64,000 nt of DNA, from positions 15,612 to 79,611 of the forward strand of contig DBQS01000036.1 in assembly GCA_002305355.1 (NCBI GenBank). Reading direction: 5' to 3'. The DNA comes from Patescibacteria group bacterium UBA1388 (GTDB taxonomy: Bacteria; Patescibacteriota; Microgenomatia; UBA1400; PJMF01). Both the position numbers and the translations under genes were made by a program. Shown piece after piece: positions 1 through 7,996 of this stretch (its first letter is position 1; each line of letters begins with the position of its first letter). Below the pieces are notes generated by a model that was not told where the DNA came from, did not search any database, and saw nothing but the letters and a program-made list of their open reading frames with translations.

Positions 1-107
1 TCAAGCATTTCGTGATCAGATTTGTCATTTAAATTTTGATCTTGATCCATTTTGGTTTGGGTTTTTTTCATGTGGTCTTTTTTCTGACTAGTCTGTTTTT
101 TTGACAT
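1..107 (-). CDS. 5' part of a gene immediately downstream of secE (possibly nusG with a low-complexity N-terminal extension); truncated by the window edge
   Basis: Minus-strand ATG at 107, reading MSKKQTSQKKDHMKKTQTKMDQDQNLNDKSDHEML; it starts 11 nt after the secE stop. Synteny suggests nusG but the KOW/NGN motifs are not reached. Confidence 0.25.
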   Translation of the reverse strand, partial: MSKKQTSQKKDHMKKTQTKMDQDQNLNDKSDHEML

Positions 108-118
108 AATTATTACTT

Positions 119-307
119 TTATCTTAATAACAAAGCTTGTGCAATGAGTTTTTGAAAGATGTAGTCAAGTGCTCCAATGTAAGCACCAATGATCAAACTA
201 ACGCCAACCACCAAAATGGTCATTTCAATGGTTTGATTTTTTGAAGGCCAAGTAACTTTTTTGAGCTCTCGTCCCACTTCACGAAAATAAGATCCTGGGT
301 TAAACAT
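119..307 (-). CDS. secE: Preprotein translocase subunit SecE
   Basis: 62 aa with a single C-terminal TM helix; the REVGRELKKVTWPSKNQT motif matches the conserved SecE cytoplasmic motif. Confidence 0.8.
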   Translation of the reverse strand: MFNPGSYFREVGRELKKVTWPSKNQTIEMTILVVGVSLIIGAYIGALDYIFQKLIAQALLLR

Positions 308-505
308 AGAACCGATATTCTATCAAATACCTGAAATAATTGAAAGTTCCACATAATAACCGCCGCTTATTGGTGAAGTGTTGCGTCAACACTTTTAAGA
401 TCAAACATATAAAACTTAAAATAAAACCAAGCAAGACGCCTACGATGTTAAGCAATTACATCATGATAGAACGAGTATTGTTGGCAACACTCTCATGGAG
501 GAAAA

Positions 506-2677
506 CTAACTTTTGTTGTCTGGTTTTAACTCTTCAATTTCTGAAGGGTTGTTAATACCTCCCGTCACGCCATGATCACTAACAGAAGGTTTGAGCGGGG
601 GAGTTATCCCATGGCCGTGTGTTTGAGGAGGAGTTTGAGGAGGTTGCCAAGGAATGGTTGTTGAGCCGAATCTGTCTGGGTTCTCCCCTAGATCATCTAA
701 CCGATCATCGTGTGGGGAGAAAATACTAGCCAAAAATTTAAGTACAACCACAATCAGCATGATTACACCAATACCCACAATGATAAAAGGCAAGTAAGAC
801 ATAAAATCACGTTTTGGAAATTCTGGAGCAAAGCTAGTTGACTCAGCAGCATCGAAATCGATCTCTGGAGCAGACGTTTCAGGTGTTTGATCGCTACCGG
901 GGATTGCAGATCTGATGAAATCGGCAATATCTATAAAAAACCCTTGCACCGATCCTAAAATCATATCCAGCATGCTTTCCTCAATTTCTACTTCATCGTC
1001 TATTGATGGAGGGGTAGGCGTCATAGTTGGAATGGGGGTAGGAATTGGTTTAGATGAAGCGCTGGCAGATGGCGAAGGTGAAGCTGAAGGCTGCAAACTT
1101 GAACTGACCGTTGGTGTGGCAAGTGGAGCAGTTTGACGACTATTGGTTGTCGTTGTTGATGCAGTTAATCTACCGGCGGTGGCAGCAGTACATGTTGTGC
1201 TACTGGGATTAGTTGCAAGACGGCAGGCGCCGTTGTAGCAGCGCAAGTTGTTGGCGCAATCGGCGTTGGCAGCACAGCTAACATTACACCCTTCTCTGAT
1301 TTGGGTGGTTTGATTCTCACTTAAAGTAGGACAGGAGGGGTCCTCGACATTGTAAGGATCCCGACATCGATTGTACCAACAAGTCAAGTTGCCACTACAT
1401 TCATTGGTGTCAGCACAGTATTCATTGCACGTCCTATTTAATCCTTGATCTGGAGGATTGTGGCAGACCGAGCTATTGACGTTGGTTGCCAACCGGCAGC
1501 GCTTGCCATCAACACCTGTATCGTAGCAACGCTCATTAGTGGAGCAGTCGCTATTACTGTTACAACGTTCGTTGCAAGTGTCGCTGACTTCATCATTTTC
1601 ATCATCTTCGTCGTCTTCATCTTCATCTGCAAATCTGAGGGTAAAGCTATACTGGTTATCATTTTCGTTTGATTCATCAATAGCGTTTTGATGATCAAGA
1701 CTGACGGTGAATTTATTATCGCCATCTTTAACAACAAAAACTGTTTCTAAGTCTGTTTTGGTGGCGTTTTTGTCTCTGAGCAGCGTGCTATAGCTCAAGT
1801 TTGATTTACCAAGACCACTATCAGCAGCTTGCAACACAATTTCAATCGGAGTTGGGTCGGTGCTACGTTCGTCATAGATACTATTGTTAATTTCTGCCTG
1901 ATGTTTGACAATGTAAAAATTTCCTATCTTCAGATTATCGGCACTCACCAGTTCGTTGCTATCTTGGTTATAAAAGAGAAAACGATCAGCCAACGCACTG
2001 GTGTTGGCGTATAAGTTGTCCCTCTTATCAGCAGTGGTCGCTTTTCCTACTTGAACAGTAATCGGTGCCACATGAGTGAGCTCATCTTTTATCGGTTGAG
2101 AATCGTAAATGGGAGCTATTGAGCGCTCAGTGTCAAAATTGAAAGTAATTTCACCAGTCTTGGTGGGAGTGAATGTTACAACAGCAAAAGTGGTAGCAGC
2201 ACTTGTTGAAAAAGGTTTCTCAGGATTGGATGAAATTGCTTTTATTTCCGCAGTGAAACCATGTTGAACTCGATCAACCTCTGTAGATAAAACGAGTAAA
2301 CCATCTGCTTTTGCATCAATCTGTATTTGATCAGCCACTTCAGTCACCACATCAAATACTAGCTGCACACCGTTCACTCGTACTTGATTGGTATTGACCT
2401 TTAATTCAATTGCGACTTCTTTTCCTACCACAATCTCTTGTGGATAAGTTGCGCTCACCTTCACTTTCCCTTCAACCACTGAAGCTTCTTGGCGAATATC
2501 CTGCGATTCTTGGATTGATTTTTGCGAAACGACCATTGTCAACAACAACAAACCAGTCAATACCAGCACGCCAAGCATGGTGAGCATCGATGAAGTGCGC
2601 TGCAGCCAAGGAAGCTTGTTTTTTGATGGTGAGTTCAAGTGTTGAGACATAACTGCTTTATATTGCTTTAATAACAA
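506..2677 (-). CDS. Large cell-surface protein: signal/TM (real start probably M31/M34 at 2587/2578), beta-rich cohesin-like module, poly-acidic tract, three Cys-rich modules, Pro/Thr/Ser linker, C-terminal TM anchor
   Basis: Translation shows an N-terminal hydrophobic segment MLTMLGVLVLTGLLLLTMVVS, the tract DEDEDDEDDENDE, three ~30-aa CNxxC..DC..NLxCYxxxCR modules, a PT-rich linker (PIPTPIPTMTPTPP) and a TM segment FIIVGIGVIMLIVVVLKFLASIF. Confidence 0.75.
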   Translation of the reverse strand: MLLKQYKAVMSQHLNSPSKNKLPWLQRTSSMLTMLGVLVLTGLLLLTMVVSQKSIQESQDIRQEASVVEGKVKVSATYPQEIVVGKEVAIELKVNTNQVRVNGVQLVFDVVTEVADQIQIDAKADGLLVLSTEVDRVQHGFTAEIKAISSNPEKPFSTSAATTFAVVTFTPTKTGEITFNFDTERSIAPIYDSQPIKDELTHVAPITVQVGKATTADKRDNLYANTSALADRFLFYNQDSNELVSADNLKIGNFYIVKHQAEINNSIYDERSTDPTPIEIVLQAADSGLGKSNLSYSTLLRDKNATKTDLETVFVVKDGDNKFTVSLDHQNAIDESNENDNQYSFTLRFADEDEDDEDDENDEVSDTCNERCNSNSDCSTNERCYDTGVDGKRCRLATNVNSSVCHNPPDQGLNRTCNEYCADTNECSGNLTCWYNRCRDPYNVEDPSCPTLSENQTTQIREGCNVSCAANADCANNLRCYNGACRLATNPSSTTCTAATAGRLTASTTTTNSRQTAPLATPTVSSSLQPSASPSPSASASSKPIPTPIPTMTPTPPSIDDEVEIEESMLDMILGSVQGFFIDIADFIRSAIPGSDQTPETSAPEIDFDAAESTSFAPEFPKRDFMSYLPFIIVGIGVIMLIVVVLKFLASIFSPHDDRLDDLGENPDRFGSTTIPWQPPQTPPQTHGHGITPPLKPSVSDHGVTGGINNPSEIEELKPDNKS

Positions 2678-2679
2678 AA

Positions 2680-3687
2680 TTATTTAAATGCGTTCACAAA
2701 AAGATTAAAATCCATTATATCCACTTTTTCGTCCTGATTGATATCTCCCCGCAAGCGGTAATACGACCCAGTGGCTCCATAATTGACAACTAAAATGTGA
2801 TAGTCAAACAAATCTACTAAACCGTCTTGATTGAAATCAGCGGGTGGAAGATTTGTTGGTGGGCAAGGTCTAAAGATACAATTGTTTTGGGGATCCCTGC
2901 TGACACTCGATCCATCGGGGCAAATTTTAACATCTGCTGCACAGACTATGTCTGACTCGCTTTCTGAAGTAAACGCTTCCACTTTGATATTTTTGAAAAA
3001 AATCTTGCTTCGTTCATCTGCAGATGTTAAAATCATATCTCCTTGATGGGAATATGGCTGACCAAGATTGCCTTTAAAAAAAGGAACTTCGTCAGCAGCA
3101 AAAAAAATCCATTCAGGATTAAGATTGACCGAGTCGTAGGTGCGCAATTCGTTTGTCCACCAAGTGTTGCTATCCTTATAGAAGTAGGCATAGAATCTCA
3201 TTTCTTGATCATTTTCTGTCCACGCTACTTCCAAAGTAGTGTAGTTTTGATCACCACTGGTGGGAGGGTCAGAATGGATTAAAAATTTATCAGTGTTACC
3301 CACAAATACTTCACCCTCTGACTCAATCATGAAACTATCAGCTTGAAGATAGGTATGCTCTGTTTTCCAGACGATGGGATTGTCTGTTTGGTATTGCACC
3401 GAATCAGGTGGTAATGTTTCAATCGTGGCAAAAGAATTTGATTCTGCAGCTAACTGTGAATCAGACTGAAAAGCAAGTTGTGGGGTATCATTTACAGCTT
3501 GTGAATCAATGAAAAATTGATGCAATGCTGCTGTGACCAGCATTGGTAGAAAGGCGGCGAGTAAAGCCAAGGTAATAAGTTGTTTAGGAGGTAATTGCCT
3601 AATTTTTTCGACAGCAACAAGAAATTTTGATTTAGAATGATTTAGTTTGGGTGTTGTGTCCATCGCAAAATCTTTGCTGTGCTTCAA
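2680..3687 (-). CDS. Secreted/membrane-anchored protein with a C-terminal dockerin module
   Basis: N-terminal TM LITLALLAAFLPMLVTAAL. The C-terminus DFNQDGLVDLFDYHILVVNYG...GDINQDEKVDIMDFNLFVNAFK is a duplicated DxNxDGxVDxxD calcium-binding dockerin signature. It lies 2 nt upstream of the 506..2677 gene. Confidence 0.75.
   Translation of the reverse strand: MKHSKDFAMDTTPKLNHSKSKFLVAVEKIRQLPPKQLITLALLAAFLPMLVTAALHQFFIDSQAVNDTPQLAFQSDSQLAAESNSFATIETLPPDSVQYQTDNPIVWKTEHTYLQADSFMIESEGEVFVGNTDKFLIHSDPPTSGDQNYTTLEVAWTENDQEMRFYAYFYKDSNTWWTNELRTYDSVNLNPEWIFFAADEVPFFKGNLGQPYSHQGDMILTSADERSKIFFKNIKVEAFTSESESDIVCAADVKICPDGSSVSRDPQNNCIFRPCPPTNLPPADFNQDGLVDLFDYHILVVNYGATGSYYRLRGDINQDEKVDIMDFNLFVNAFK
2683..2847 (-). 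other. Dockerin type-I-like module (two Ca-binding repeats)
   Basis: DFNQDGLVDLFD and DINQDEKVDIMD, each followed by a hydrophobic helix. Confidence 0.7.
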
Positions 3688-3810
3688 TCGGTTTAAATTT
3701 TAGCTACAATGAATCTAACATTAAAAACGCACGAGTCATAGCTACGAACCTAGCATCTAGCTTAACTCTTGAATCGAGCGGCTGTCAACATGAAATGATA
3801 AAAAATTGTT

Positions 3811-5136
3811 TTGAATAATAAAATGATCAGGGTTTATAAGTTGACACAATTAGAGAAAATCATTGTAGCTTGGTTGGTTTTAGGTTGGTCGTGGTTGGCG
3901 ACAGTAGGTTGGGTAATTGGCCTAACTGGTTTTGATTTGATTCCAGAGTTAGTGCGCGTTACATCATTTTATATTTGGAGTGAGGGGTTGATGGTGCTGA
4001 CTTTGTTGGACTGGTTGGGGCGTGTTGGGAAAACCGTCAGCTTTCCACACTTGGACAGATCAGGCAAATTATTGGGCTTGGCATTGATGATGCACCTGGG
4101 GTGGATTGCCATCACTGCGGTGTTGGGTGAAAACCCGGCCCAGAGTTTTTGGGGAAATTATTATCGACAGGACGGTTTGTTGACGCTGGCTCATCTAGCA
4201 ATGTGGGTAGTGATGATTGGCTTGTGGTGGCGAGAAATTTGGGGCCAGTGGTTATGGTTGCTGATTGCTCTAAGTGGAATAGTTTTATCACTTGGTTTGG
4301 TGTTGATGCATGTTTGGCAATGGGCAATGGTGATGGGGGGTTGGCCAGAAAGGGTAATCCAAAGTTCATTGCTGATGACTGGCGGTTTTGGTCACCCGGC
4401 TTACTTGGCGGGCTTTTTGGTGTTAACTTTGCCTTTTATTTGGTTTTTGCCTAATTTGCTTGCTAGGTCTGGTGAGTTTGAAAAGGGTTATGAGGGGCGG
4501 CGGCGGGAGTGGCTCAGGGGGGTGGGGTTGGTCAGCGCCGCCGCCGCCATCATCTTGACTCAATCAACAGGTGCTACGCTGGCCTTGGTCATTTTTTTTG
4601 GAATGACATTATTTGCATCCTTTCGTCGTCGAGCCTTGAGAATAGAGATTATTGTTTTGATCGGCGTGGCAGTCTTCGTCACCTCAACCTGGATCTATGT
4701 TTCACAACTTAATTCTTATGAAGGTAGGCCAAGAATTTTCCATAACCTGTGGTCAGCCAGTCAGCAACGACCAATTATTGGTTGGGGCTGGGCAAATATT
4801 GACTCAGCTTTTAAAAATGTAGAGTGGCCATATCCAGTGCAATTTGATGTTTATTTGGATAAAGCCCATTCTCACATGTTGGAAATATTGGTAGCAACGG
4901 GTTGGCCAGGACTAATAATCTACTTGGCTTTTATAAGTATCTTGTTGCTCATAGCTTTCAGTAAATACAAGAAAATAACACTTAAAAAAAGATCAACAAA
5001 CCAATATTATTTGGCAATACTGATGTGTTTGGTACTGTATATCTTTCACTCCCAAACAAATGTCATCTCAATTATGGAAGAAATAATCTTCTGGTTTTGT
5101 GTGGGTCTGGTGATTGACTCAACAAAAGTTATTTGA
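3811..5136 (+). CDS. O-antigen ligase (Wzy_C)-like polytopic membrane protein
   Basis: About 10 TM helices. The KAHSHMLEILVATGWPGL motif matches the Wzy_C AHNxxLxxxxExGxxG signature. Confidence 0.65.
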   Translation: MNNKMIRVYKLTQLEKIIVAWLVLGWSWLATVGWVIGLTGFDLIPELVRVTSFYIWSEGLMVLTLLDWLGRVGKTVSFPHLDRSGKLLGLALMMHLGWIAITAVLGENPAQSFWGNYYRQDGLLTLAHLAMWVVMIGLWWREIWGQWLWLLIALSGIVLSLGLVLMHVWQWAMVMGGWPERVIQSSLLMTGGFGHPAYLAGFLVLTLPFIWFLPNLLARSGEFEKGYEGRRREWLRGVGLVSAAAAIILTQSTGATLALVIFFGMTLFASFRRRALRIEIIVLIGVAVFVTSTWIYVSQLNSYEGRPRIFHNLWSASQQRPIIGWGWANIDSAFKNVEWPYPVQFDVYLDKAHSHMLEILVATGWPGLIIYLAFISILLLIAFSKYKKITLKKRSTNQYYLAILMCLVLYIFHSQTNVISIMEEIIFWFCVGLVIDSTKVI

Positions 5137-5147
5137 ACTGTTCGTCA

Positions 5148-6983
5148 CTACGAGGCATTACGAAAGATAACTACCCAAGCATTAAAATCAAGGATATCAA
5201 TCCGACCATTGTTATCCATGTCTGAAGAGGTAAATCCCGGATTACCGGTTCTACCGTACTCGCTAACAAAAACATTAAAGTCCAGAAGATTGATGATGTT
5301 GTCTTGATTGAAGTCGCCTCTCAATGTGTTGCCGGTTGAGCAAGTTGCCGTTCGAATTGAACGGGTTGGGCTTGAGCTAAAGCCATTCCATAAATTAACA
5401 TAGTATTGAGTATTTTCAGATAAATTTAGGGCAGGTTGATTGGATTGGGGTAAAAAATTGGCTGGAGCAATTATTTGAAAATATTGACTTGAGTTGTTAG
5501 CGGTGACTAGATCAACTTTCTTAATGGTGCTGCTCCAAAATTTATCGAAAGTTGGGTTTTTGCTAATATTAGCGACAGACACAGCTTGTTGGTAATTTGC
5601 TGGCCACTGAATTCTAATAATCGGCTGTCGGCCATTTTGTGTGGTGATACAGCTTGAACTAAGAGTAGGGGCTGATGGGGTCAGAGGGGTTTGTAGAAAA
5701 TTGGCAAATTCCCGATTGATCTGATTAATACTGACTCGGTTAAAAGCATTTCCTCCGGGTTCAAAATAATGTCTCATAATTGAGTTTTCAGATGAGCGGT
5801 AAAGGTTGGGGTAATAACAACCAGCTAAGCAATCCGTTCCATCAATATTTTCCCATTTTGGACAGCTGGCTACATCGCAGTTGGCTCTTGATAGGACGAA
5901 TTGTGTGTTCGAAGAAGCATGATGATCTACTAAATATTCATCTGCCAACCTACCGAATGCATGACCAAGCTCATGAACAGCTATAGATAGATAGTCCACG
6001 TCAGTCGAGACTATAGCGATTCTGTCGTAAGCAGTGCCAGCTGGTTGATTGGAATCGTAAAGTACGATGACGTTATCAACCCAAACGTATTTAAGCAACT
6101 GTACTAAAGCAGTCCGATTACACTCGATAAGAGTTTGTCCAACATATGGAATATTACAGTTAATTGATTGGGTGAATATCTTCTTGATTTTAATATCATT
6201 TCTATGCTGATTGAATGGTTTGTAGGTTAACAAATGTTGCAAGATATGATTCACATGTTGATCAAATTTTGCTCTATCTGTGTAGTTGGAGCTAACGAAA
6301 ACGAAATCAATTTGCCCGTTATAAAATGAAATATTATTTGAGTAGTTATTTTGTGTAACACCCAATACTTGTTGATCGGGATCGTCTAGGGCAAAATCTG
6401 AAGAATTCAAATCTACTGACTCAATGATTAACTCATCTTCATTGATTATGGTTGTGGGTTCGGAGGGTGACGACAAGAGTTGAGCATTAATGAGCGGAAT
6501 GATTTCTCCTGTTTCAGTTTTCCTGATCTGCAGTTGAGCTTTCGGCCACACCTTAAAAGCAATCGTCAGACTATCCTTAAGTTGACCCCCAGACCTATCA
6601 CCATCATAGTAAATTGTAAAATTAAGAGGAATGGAGTCGACAATCTCTTCTCCAACTATCTGATCTAGAATAAGTTCTGGGTTAGGTTGAGTGATAAGTG
6701 GTAAATTCATTCCTTCAAATTTTTCTACGCTTTCCAAAATAATTTTGTCATCTTGATAGGTTAAGTTGGCTAGAACAAAAATTGGCTCCTGATTTGTCGT
6801 CGCTTGACTGCGAATATCTTGAGTGCCAGGTTCCTGATCTTGAGCATTAGGTTGTTGCTCTTGGATTAAACCCAACTGCGATACCATAGGTTTAGCAGTG
6901 TAAAATAAAACACCGATTAAACTCATAAAGAGGAGAATTGTTTTAATATTAGAATAGTGATGTTGTGTTTGATGAACCAACAT
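5148..6983 (-). CDS. Secreted zinc metalloprotease (HExxH...DEY, M64-like) with a C-terminal dockerin module
   Basis: N-terminal signal/TM ILLFMSLIGVLFYTA; VHELGHAFGRLADEY at nt 5934..5975; C-terminus DFNQDNIINLLDFNVFVSEYG...DMDNNGRIDILDFNAWVVIF. Confidence 0.75.
   Translation of the reverse strand: MLVHQTQHHYSNIKTILLFMSLIGVLFYTAKPMVSQLGLIQEQQPNAQDQEPGTQDIRSQATTNQEPIFVLANLTYQDDKIILESVEKFEGMNLPLITQPNPELILDQIVGEEIVDSIPLNFTIYYDGDRSGGQLKDSLTIAFKVWPKAQLQIRKTETGEIIPLINAQLLSSPSEPTTIINEDELIIESVDLNSSDFALDDPDQQVLGVTQNNYSNNISFYNGQIDFVFVSSNYTDRAKFDQHVNHILQHLLTYKPFNQHRNDIKIKKIFTQSINCNIPYVGQTLIECNRTALVQLLKYVWVDNVIVLYDSNQPAGTAYDRIAIVSTDVDYLSIAVHELGHAFGRLADEYLVDHHASSNTQFVLSRANCDVASCPKWENIDGTDCLAGCYYPNLYRSSENSIMRHYFEPGGNAFNRVSINQINREFANFLQTPLTPSAPTLSSSCITTQNGRQPIIRIQWPANYQQAVSVANISKNPTFDKFWSSTIKKVDLVTANNSSQYFQIIAPANFLPQSNQPALNLSENTQYYVNLWNGFSSSPTRSIRTATCSTGNTLRGDFNQDNIINLLDFNVFVSEYGRTGNPGFTSSDMDNNGRIDILDFNAWVVIFRNAS
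5151..5321 (-). other. Dockerin type-I-like module (two Ca-binding repeats)
   Basis: DFNQDNIINLLD and DMDNNGRIDILD repeats. Confidence 0.7.
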
Positions 6984-7105
6984 ATAGTAATTTGATTTAC
7001 CACAGCTGAGTTAAGTCAGTATAGATCAATTTTTGAATGCGGTATACTATTTCGGTACGTAGGATATAAAACTAAATACTATTCGTAATACACGATGGGA
7101 GGCAA

Positions 7106-7996
7106 ATGACAGAGAGTATTGTTCGTAAAGCTATCATTACCGACGCTGGGTTTGCCAGTAGGTACTTACCCATTACTAAGACTATTCCCAAAGCGATGTT
7201 GCCGCTTGGCAACAAACCAGTCATGCAGTTCATGGTGGAGGAGTGTACACAGGCTGGAATCCAGGAAATTATTATTGTGGCCACCCCAGAGGGTAAACCA
7301 ATTTATGAGGATTATTTCCATAATAGTGTAATTCGGATCAAGAAGCAGCTTGAGTCGCAAGGTAAATTGGATCGTTACGAGCCTGTACAGCGAGTATTAG
7401 ACTTCCCTAAAATTACCATCATCACTCAAGACCCAAGCTTGCCATATGGTAATGGTTCACCAGTCGCATCTGCTCAAAAATTTGTCGAGGGAGAAGAAGC
7501 ATTTTTGGTAATGTACAGTGATGATGTGGTTTATGGCGAACATGGTGATGCCAAGGCATTGGTTGACTTATTTGCTGCTCGAAAAGATGCCGATGCGATT
7601 ATTATGGCTCAAGAGGTGAGCTCGGAAGTTGTTGACAAGTATGGCATTATTTCTTTTAAAGATGGCACCGATAATCAACTTGATAACATTATTGAAAAAC
7701 CAGAAGTTGGTCAAGCTCCTTCCACGCTGGCTTCTTATGGCCGTTACCTGTTGAAACCCTCAATATTTGATCATCTGGTGCCGAAGTATACGGGCAAAGA
7801 CGGTGAGTTGTGGACAGTTGATGCGATCACTAAAATTGCTGAGTCAGGAACAGTGTTGGTAGAAAAAACTAAAGGCCAATGGCTTACAACCGGCGATCCG
7901 GAAAATTATTTTAGAGCTTATTTGGAATTTGTGATCAAGTTTGAAAAATATGGTCACAAAATACCGGCGTGGTTAGAAGAAATTGGTGGAGTTTGA
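7106..7996 (+). CDS. galU: UTP-glucose-1-phosphate uridylyltransferase
   Basis: ITDAGFASRYLPITKTIPKAMLPLGNKPVMQFMVEE is the nucleotidyltransferase G-loop typical of GalU. GGGAGG RBS 4 nt upstream. Confidence 0.75.
   Translation: MTESIVRKAIITDAGFASRYLPITKTIPKAMLPLGNKPVMQFMVEECTQAGIQEIIIVATPEGKPIYEDYFHNSVIRIKKQLESQGKLDRYEPVQRVLDFPKITIITQDPSLPYGNGSPVASAQKFVEGEEAFLVMYSDDVVYGEHGDAKALVDLFAARKDADAIIMAQEVSSEVVDKYGIISFKDGTDNQLDNIIEKPEVGQAPSTLASYGRYLLKPSIFDHLVPKYTGKDGELWTVDAITKIAESGTVLVEKTKGQWLTTGDPENYFRAYLEFVIKFEKYGHKIPAWLEEIGGV

Follow-up and report, generated by a model that had tools for sequence, protein, structure and literature searches.

A predicted cohesin-fold module in a two-helix membrane protein of Patescibacteria encoded beside dockerin proteins

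A 723-aa membrane protein encoded in the 64-kb stretch of Patescibacteria DNA analysed here (the window) carries a module that is predicted with high confidence to adopt the cohesin fold. Structure modelling suggests that this module is a highly diverged cohesin, that is, a new divergent relative of a known kind of domain. The protein probably acts as a single-cohesin, membrane-anchored surface protein that anchors the dockerin proteins encoded next to it. We speak of an anchoring protein rather than of a multi-enzyme scaffoldin because only one cohesin is present in the chain.

A substantial part of bacterial diversity belongs to the Patescibacteria (CPR), and an attached life on other cells is assumed for most of them. 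Few of their surface proteins are annotated. Dockerin domains are routinely found among the annotations of their genomes; to our knowledge, the matching cohesins have not been recognised by sequence profiles. In the cultivated saccharibacterium Southlakia, for which no cohesin was reported, one dockerin protein is essential (PMC10633639).

The preliminary description had delimited a cohesin-like module at residues 70–190 of the 723-aa ORF, which a coordinate check places exactly at window positions 2108–2470. The module was rightly spotted and its end was set too early: the predicted fold covers aa 72–211, an extension of about 60 nt, and truncation at aa 190 would drop strand 9 and the conserved loop between strands 8 and 9, in which S, P, D and L positions are 85–91% conserved in the family alignment. 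The best AF2 model, obtained with one method from an alignment of 41 sequences of a single family, reached a pLDDT of 91.1 and a pTM of 0.81, and all five models scored between 87.8 and 91.1 pLDDT, with 140 out of 171 residues at pLDDT ≥90. On this predicted structure, the roughly 140 residues of the module form a flattened nine-stranded beta-sandwich whose topology is that of cohesins. When the model was searched with Foldseek, cohesins made up 31 out of 34 matches at E≤1e-3. The 17 top structural matches were all true cohesins, followed by a clear gap before adhesin domains, and the cohesin of the Clostridium perfringens NanJ GH33 enzyme (2vo8) matched with a TM score of 0.79. The structure-based identity to cohesins was 7–17%. 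As a control, the same modelling pipeline was applied to the second domain of the protein, which matched CARDB and not cohesin. Structure comparison, proposed beforehand as the check on the fold, thus favours a cohesin over an Ig-like, Big or CARDB-like domain for the module. These three were rejected as the module fold, the CARDB match belonging to domain 2, and so were GOLD/emp24 and the PRD1 spike (Pfam E>0.05).

In sequence databases the module goes unrecognised as a cohesin. Neither the window protein nor any of the 41 family members scanned matched Pfam PF00963 at E≤1, an NCBIfam scan of the window protein contained noise and no cohesin match, a PHROGs scan returned only noise, and the family profile retrieved nothing at E≤10 from PDB sequences. 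NCBI names a member of the family merely ‘hypothetical protein’. Alignment with hhalign gave a probability of 0.3% against CipA cohesin 2 (reference sequence 1ohz) and of 0.1% against a narrow CipA profile, whose homologues are only 63–82% identical, neither value being significant. The best of these non-significant alignments sets ‘ITFNFD’ of the module on ‘YITFDEV’ in strand 8 of CipA Coh2. The F-D pair singled out in the preliminary description, F181-D182 of the 723-aa protein within that segment, ranks among the best-conserved residues in the family alignment (F 81%, D 87%); the likeness of such positions to the type-I cohesin consensus, also suggested there, was not demonstrable at the sequence level. 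Cohesin–dockerin binding classically involves the 8-3-6-5 sheet and depends on Ca2+. The equivalent sheet would be a candidate binding face in the module. Its strands have a conservation of 1.95 bits versus 1.65 bits for sheet 9-1-2-7-4, a difference too weak to single out this face. Conserved polar positions of the module lie in strands 3 and 8 as well as in the loop joining strands 8 and 9; polar residues conserved in the family include Q51, D/N55, T58, N126, D128, S132 and D144 of the 171-aa segment.

The module is one of several parts of a protein that is predicted to have a membrane helix near each end (Table 1). Homologues carry a K/R-rich tail (median 20 aa) ahead of the first helix. 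This tail is reproduced only by starts at 2650 or 2677, and the 714-aa form starting at ATG 2650 therefore fits best with the homologous sequences. The N-terminal helix may be a signal-anchor or an uncleaved signal sequence and possibly remains in the membrane. Were it left uncleaved, the module would sit very near the membrane; display modules are rarely found so close to it, which counts against the anchoring reading. In the motif that follows the helix, the A is the family’s best-conserved position (97%) and pLDDT is low; the 611-aa dockerin protease of the window has the motif as well (QDIRSQAT). Domain 2 (aa 225–349) was modelled with a pLDDT of about 95, its best PDB match being the CARDB domain 3idu (E 1e-3, TMt 0.56), and it has a weak Pfam CARDB match (E 0.0028) below the Pfam cut-off. 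The Cys-rich repeats, located by regular expression at residues 338–375, 387–419 and 434–466 of the 693-aa form, have invariant or nearly invariant cysteines and fold with a pLDDT of about 90. A 99-aa ORF at 1438..1737 (-), in another frame within the gene, was rejected as a real gene, as it overlaps the conserved region coding for these repeats.

Table 1. Positions of the module gene, its parts and the neighbouring genes in the window
Feature	Position	Strand	Remarks
Module-protein gene	506..2677	-	723 aa from first TTG (mechanical start)
Alternative starts	ATG 2587; ATG 2650	-	693 aa (gene caller on Logan contig); 714 aa
N-terminal hydrophobic helix	2528..2584	-	aa 32–50 of 723-aa ORF; Kyte-Doolittle mean 2.53
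Juxtamembrane motif S-Q-D-x-R-x-Q-A-S	2480..2506	-	between helix and module
Predicted cohesin-fold module	2045..2464	-	nine beta-strands; aa 72–211 of 723-aa ORF
CARDB-like second beta-sandwich domain	1631..1981	-	present in part of family only
Three six-cysteine repeats (stalk), preceded by acidic linker	1190..1576	-	CNxxCxSNxDCxxNxRCYxGxCRLATNPSSxxC
C-terminal TM helix, putative membrane anchor	731..787	-	aa 631–649 of 723-aa ORF; Kyte-Doolittle mean 3.04
Predicted cytoplasmic tail	509..730	-	Pro/Ser/Thr-rich; positive-inside rule
335-aa protein gene, upstream	2680..3687	-	stop codon 2 nt before TTG of module ORF
Wzy_C (O-antigen-ligase-like) membrane protein gene	3811..5136	+	between the two dockerin genes; PF04932 E 2.4e-16
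611-aa dockerin protease gene	5148..6983	-	N-terminal helix, QDIRSQAT, M64-like zinc metalloprotease (HELGH), C-terminal dockerin 5160–5315
NTP_transferase (sugar-nucleotidyltransferase) gene	7106..7996	+	Pfam E 1.8e-31

Both hydrophobic helices are present in 111 out of 150 family representatives. Over these 111 members, the net charge is +2.4 before and +0.1 after the N-terminal helix, and -0.2 before and +2.8 after the C-terminal one. This positive-inside pattern places the N-terminus inside and the module outside the cell, between the two helices, an extracytoplasmic location deduced from sequence. A C-terminal TM helix had been proposed as the anchor in place of SLH repeats or a sortase signal; hydropathy confirms the helix, and neither SLH repeats (Pfam) nor an LPXTG-like motif, the anchors of cellulosomal scaffoldins, were found in the window protein. 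The tails of the homologues have a median length of 110 aa, and in 63 out of 150 representatives the tail closes with M..[RK]..[KR]G[IVL], a motif of which the window protein has a degenerate form.

Exactly two dockerin ORFs occur in the window, one abutting the module gene and the other 2.5 kb upstream. Both have the tandem segments of about 22 residues, each with a 12-residue EF-hand-like Ca2+ loop (DxNxDGxIDxxD) and a helix, that characterise type I dockerins (PF00404). The 335-aa protein consists of an N-terminal helix, a beta-rich cargo domain of no assigned family and a C-terminal dockerin at 2683–2838, with Ca loops DFNQDGLVDLFD and DINQDEKVDIMD at aa 284 and 315, 31 aa apart. It matches Pfam Dockerin_1 at E 4.5e-4, with 20.8 bits against a cut-off of 22.9, and its best PDB sequence matches are all dockerins. 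The 611-aa protein matches Peptidase_M64 (E 7.4e-8) and Dockerin_1 (E 1e-3; 19.6 bits, under the same 22.9); its loops are at aa 557 and 588, and its dockerin resembles PDB dockerin 2y3n_B (E 1.6e-5). The Wzy_C gene gives the locus a cell-envelope context. In nearly all related loci, the NTP_transferase gene is a conserved divergent neighbour: most of loci L003–L028 have the gene for this ‘...TTGDPENYF..AH..F’ protein upstream and in opposite orientation. A promoter and terminator scan of positions 1–7200 gave counts equal to the shuffled expectation.

The module gene and dockerin genes occur together in other genomes as well as in the window. A dockerin-terminated ORF was found directly upstream, on the same strand and within 106 nt, in 22 out of 47 non-redundant loci having upstream DNA, and, of the 45 dockerin ORFs present across the 743 kb retrieved, 33 adjoin a module gene. 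The adjacent dockerin gene is missing in about half of the loci. Among ten upstream proteins tested at the same position in other loci, six pass the Pfam Dockerin_1 gathering score, with 24.5–41 bits. Their cargo varies and includes a beta-helix protein (locus L019). Moreover, about 10 out of 150 family representatives (P0038, P0059, P0075, P0057, P0098 and P0089 among them) are single chains in which a long Pro/Ser/Thr or TSP3-like linker connects the module to a dockerin, and the cargo domain of the window’s 335-aa protein is found in cis in another member (P0009). Judged from these gene arrangements, the dockerin gene/module gene pair and the natural fusions, which are independent of each other, strongly support a putative docking role for the module towards the neighbouring dockerins.

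The family defined by the module is large. An exhaustive phmmer search with aa 55–225 as the query retrieved at least 156 cluster representatives at E≤1e-3, 80 of them at E≤1e-10, and the match always lies at about aa 40–205 of the target, directly after the N-terminal hydrophobic helix. All located members come from Patescibacteria MAGs. A word-indexed homologue search returned no match for the module and one for the family profile, the index being apparently blind to this family, and a genome scan with the single protein confirmed nothing. Scanning with the full-length family alignment succeeded via the pattern CRLATNP[SG]S. The module defines the family and persists in members from which Cys repeats and C-terminal TM helix have been lost.

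A plausible sequence of events can be outlined from these data. The polypeptide would enter the membrane via the N-terminal helix and be held by the C-terminal TM helix, with the tail behind it in the cytoplasm. Exposed between the two helices would be, in order, the cohesin module, the CARDB-like domain, the acidic linker, the three disulfide-rich repeats and a Pro/Ser/Thr-rich linker. We infer that secreted proteins ending in a Ca2+-loaded, type-I-like dockerin with a duplicated loop are bound through that dockerin by the module and would thereby be kept non-covalently at the cell surface. The likely ligands in the window would be the 335-aa protein, presumably co-transcribed with the module gene, and the nearby 611-aa M64-like zinc metalloprotease. 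The biological role could then be the surface display of hydrolases or adhesins.

The cohesin fold could also be put to another use. The module might be an adhesin or ligand-binding head, for instance for glycans or proteins on the surface of the bacterium to which the presumed episymbiont attaches, and the dockerins might use another receptor. The lack of sequence similarity between the module and proven cohesins would fit such a head, as would the half of the loci without an adjacent dockerin gene and the CARDB-like domain that comes next, CARDB being ‘cell adhesion related’. We nevertheless consider this unlikely, given that true cohesins take all of the 17 top places in the structure search, well separated from adhesin domains, and that the tight same-strand pairs and the fusions are hard to explain without a functional link between module and dockerin. 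It is less likely still, indeed quite improbable, that the module is a generic beta-sandwich spacer of an envelope protein, with a convergent cohesin-like topology, and that the protein owes its function, such as envelope organisation or signalling, to the Cys-rich repeats or the cytoplasmic tail. Such a spacer would agree with conservation in the full-length alignment being strictest in the repeats and with a locus set amid envelope genes (Wzy_C, NTP-sugar transferase, L,D-transpeptidase), but it is at odds with the retention of the module where the repeats and the C-terminal helix are lost, with the conserved polar positions on its strands and 8-9 loop, and with the dockerin linkage, which speaks against a passive element. 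Finally, it is hardly credible, even with a single modelling method and a one-family alignment, that AlphaFold forced an ambiguous beta-rich sequence with a real Ig-, Big- or CARDB-like fold into a cohesin-like shape, since the five models scored uniformly high, the neighbouring domain came out of the same pipeline as a different fold (CARDB), and an Ig, Big or CARDB domain would have fewer than nine strands and be shorter than about 140 residues.

Read as an anchoring protein, the window protein has counterparts among known systems. OlpA and OlpC of Acetivibrio (Clostridium) thermocellus, single-cohesin anchoring proteins which we take to be represented by PDB entries 3ul4 and 4dh2, likewise have one type-I cohesin per protein and tether single dockerin-bearing enzymes straight to the cell surface. 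They differ in being attached to the cell wall by SLH repeats, whereas the window protein has none and relies on a predicted C-terminal TM helix with a cytoplasmic tail, besides the N-terminal helix; there is no detectable sequence similarity, and the window cargo (an M64-like protease and an unassigned domain) is non-cellulolytic. ScaE of Ruminococcus flavefaciens (type III cohesin, 2zf9) is also a monovalent cell-surface anchoring cohesin that holds its system on the cell, but it is sortase-anchored (LPXTG). Pairs outside cellulose degradation are known from the cohesins of C. perfringens glycoside hydrolases (NanJ GH33, 2vo8; GH84, 2jh2, 2w1n and 2o4e) and from Archaeoglobus fulgidus (2xdh). 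The C. perfringens cohesins lie inside secreted enzymes and form enzyme–enzyme complexes, while the window cohesin, from another phylum, would head an integral membrane protein without catalytic function. The family members that join the module to a C-terminal dockerin recall adaptor scaffoldins (ScaA/ScaB types), from which they differ by a single cohesin and a membrane helix at the N-terminus; no dockerin is present in the window protein. The likeness to CARDB (PF07705; 3idu) concerns domain 2 alone. No GH or CBM families were found with Pfam among the window neighbours; with an M64-like metalloprotease, an unassigned domain and the beta-helix protein as cargo, the system appears non-cellulosomal.

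A broader proposal, which we regard as rather doubtful, is that the family constitutes a general unrecognised cohesin of Patescibacteria, whose TM form would couple cargo to the cell interior via the conserved cytoplasmic tail, whose fusions would polymerise head-to-tail into surface chains, and whose TM helix plus S-Q-D-x-R-x-Q-A-S motif would be a lineage-specific sorting or processing signal. If so, the many surface proteins that carry a dockerin tag in these ultra-small episymbionts would have the module as their receptor. The anchoring reading of the window protein, if true, would provide a profile for annotating at least 150 protein clusters and an orthogonal cohesin–dockerin pair for protein engineering. 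It would also explain how proteases and other exoproteins are held on the surface of these bacteria without SLH or sortase anchors of the cellulosome type. The concept of cohesin–dockerin assembly would remain unchanged, with its reach widened and another anchoring solution added.

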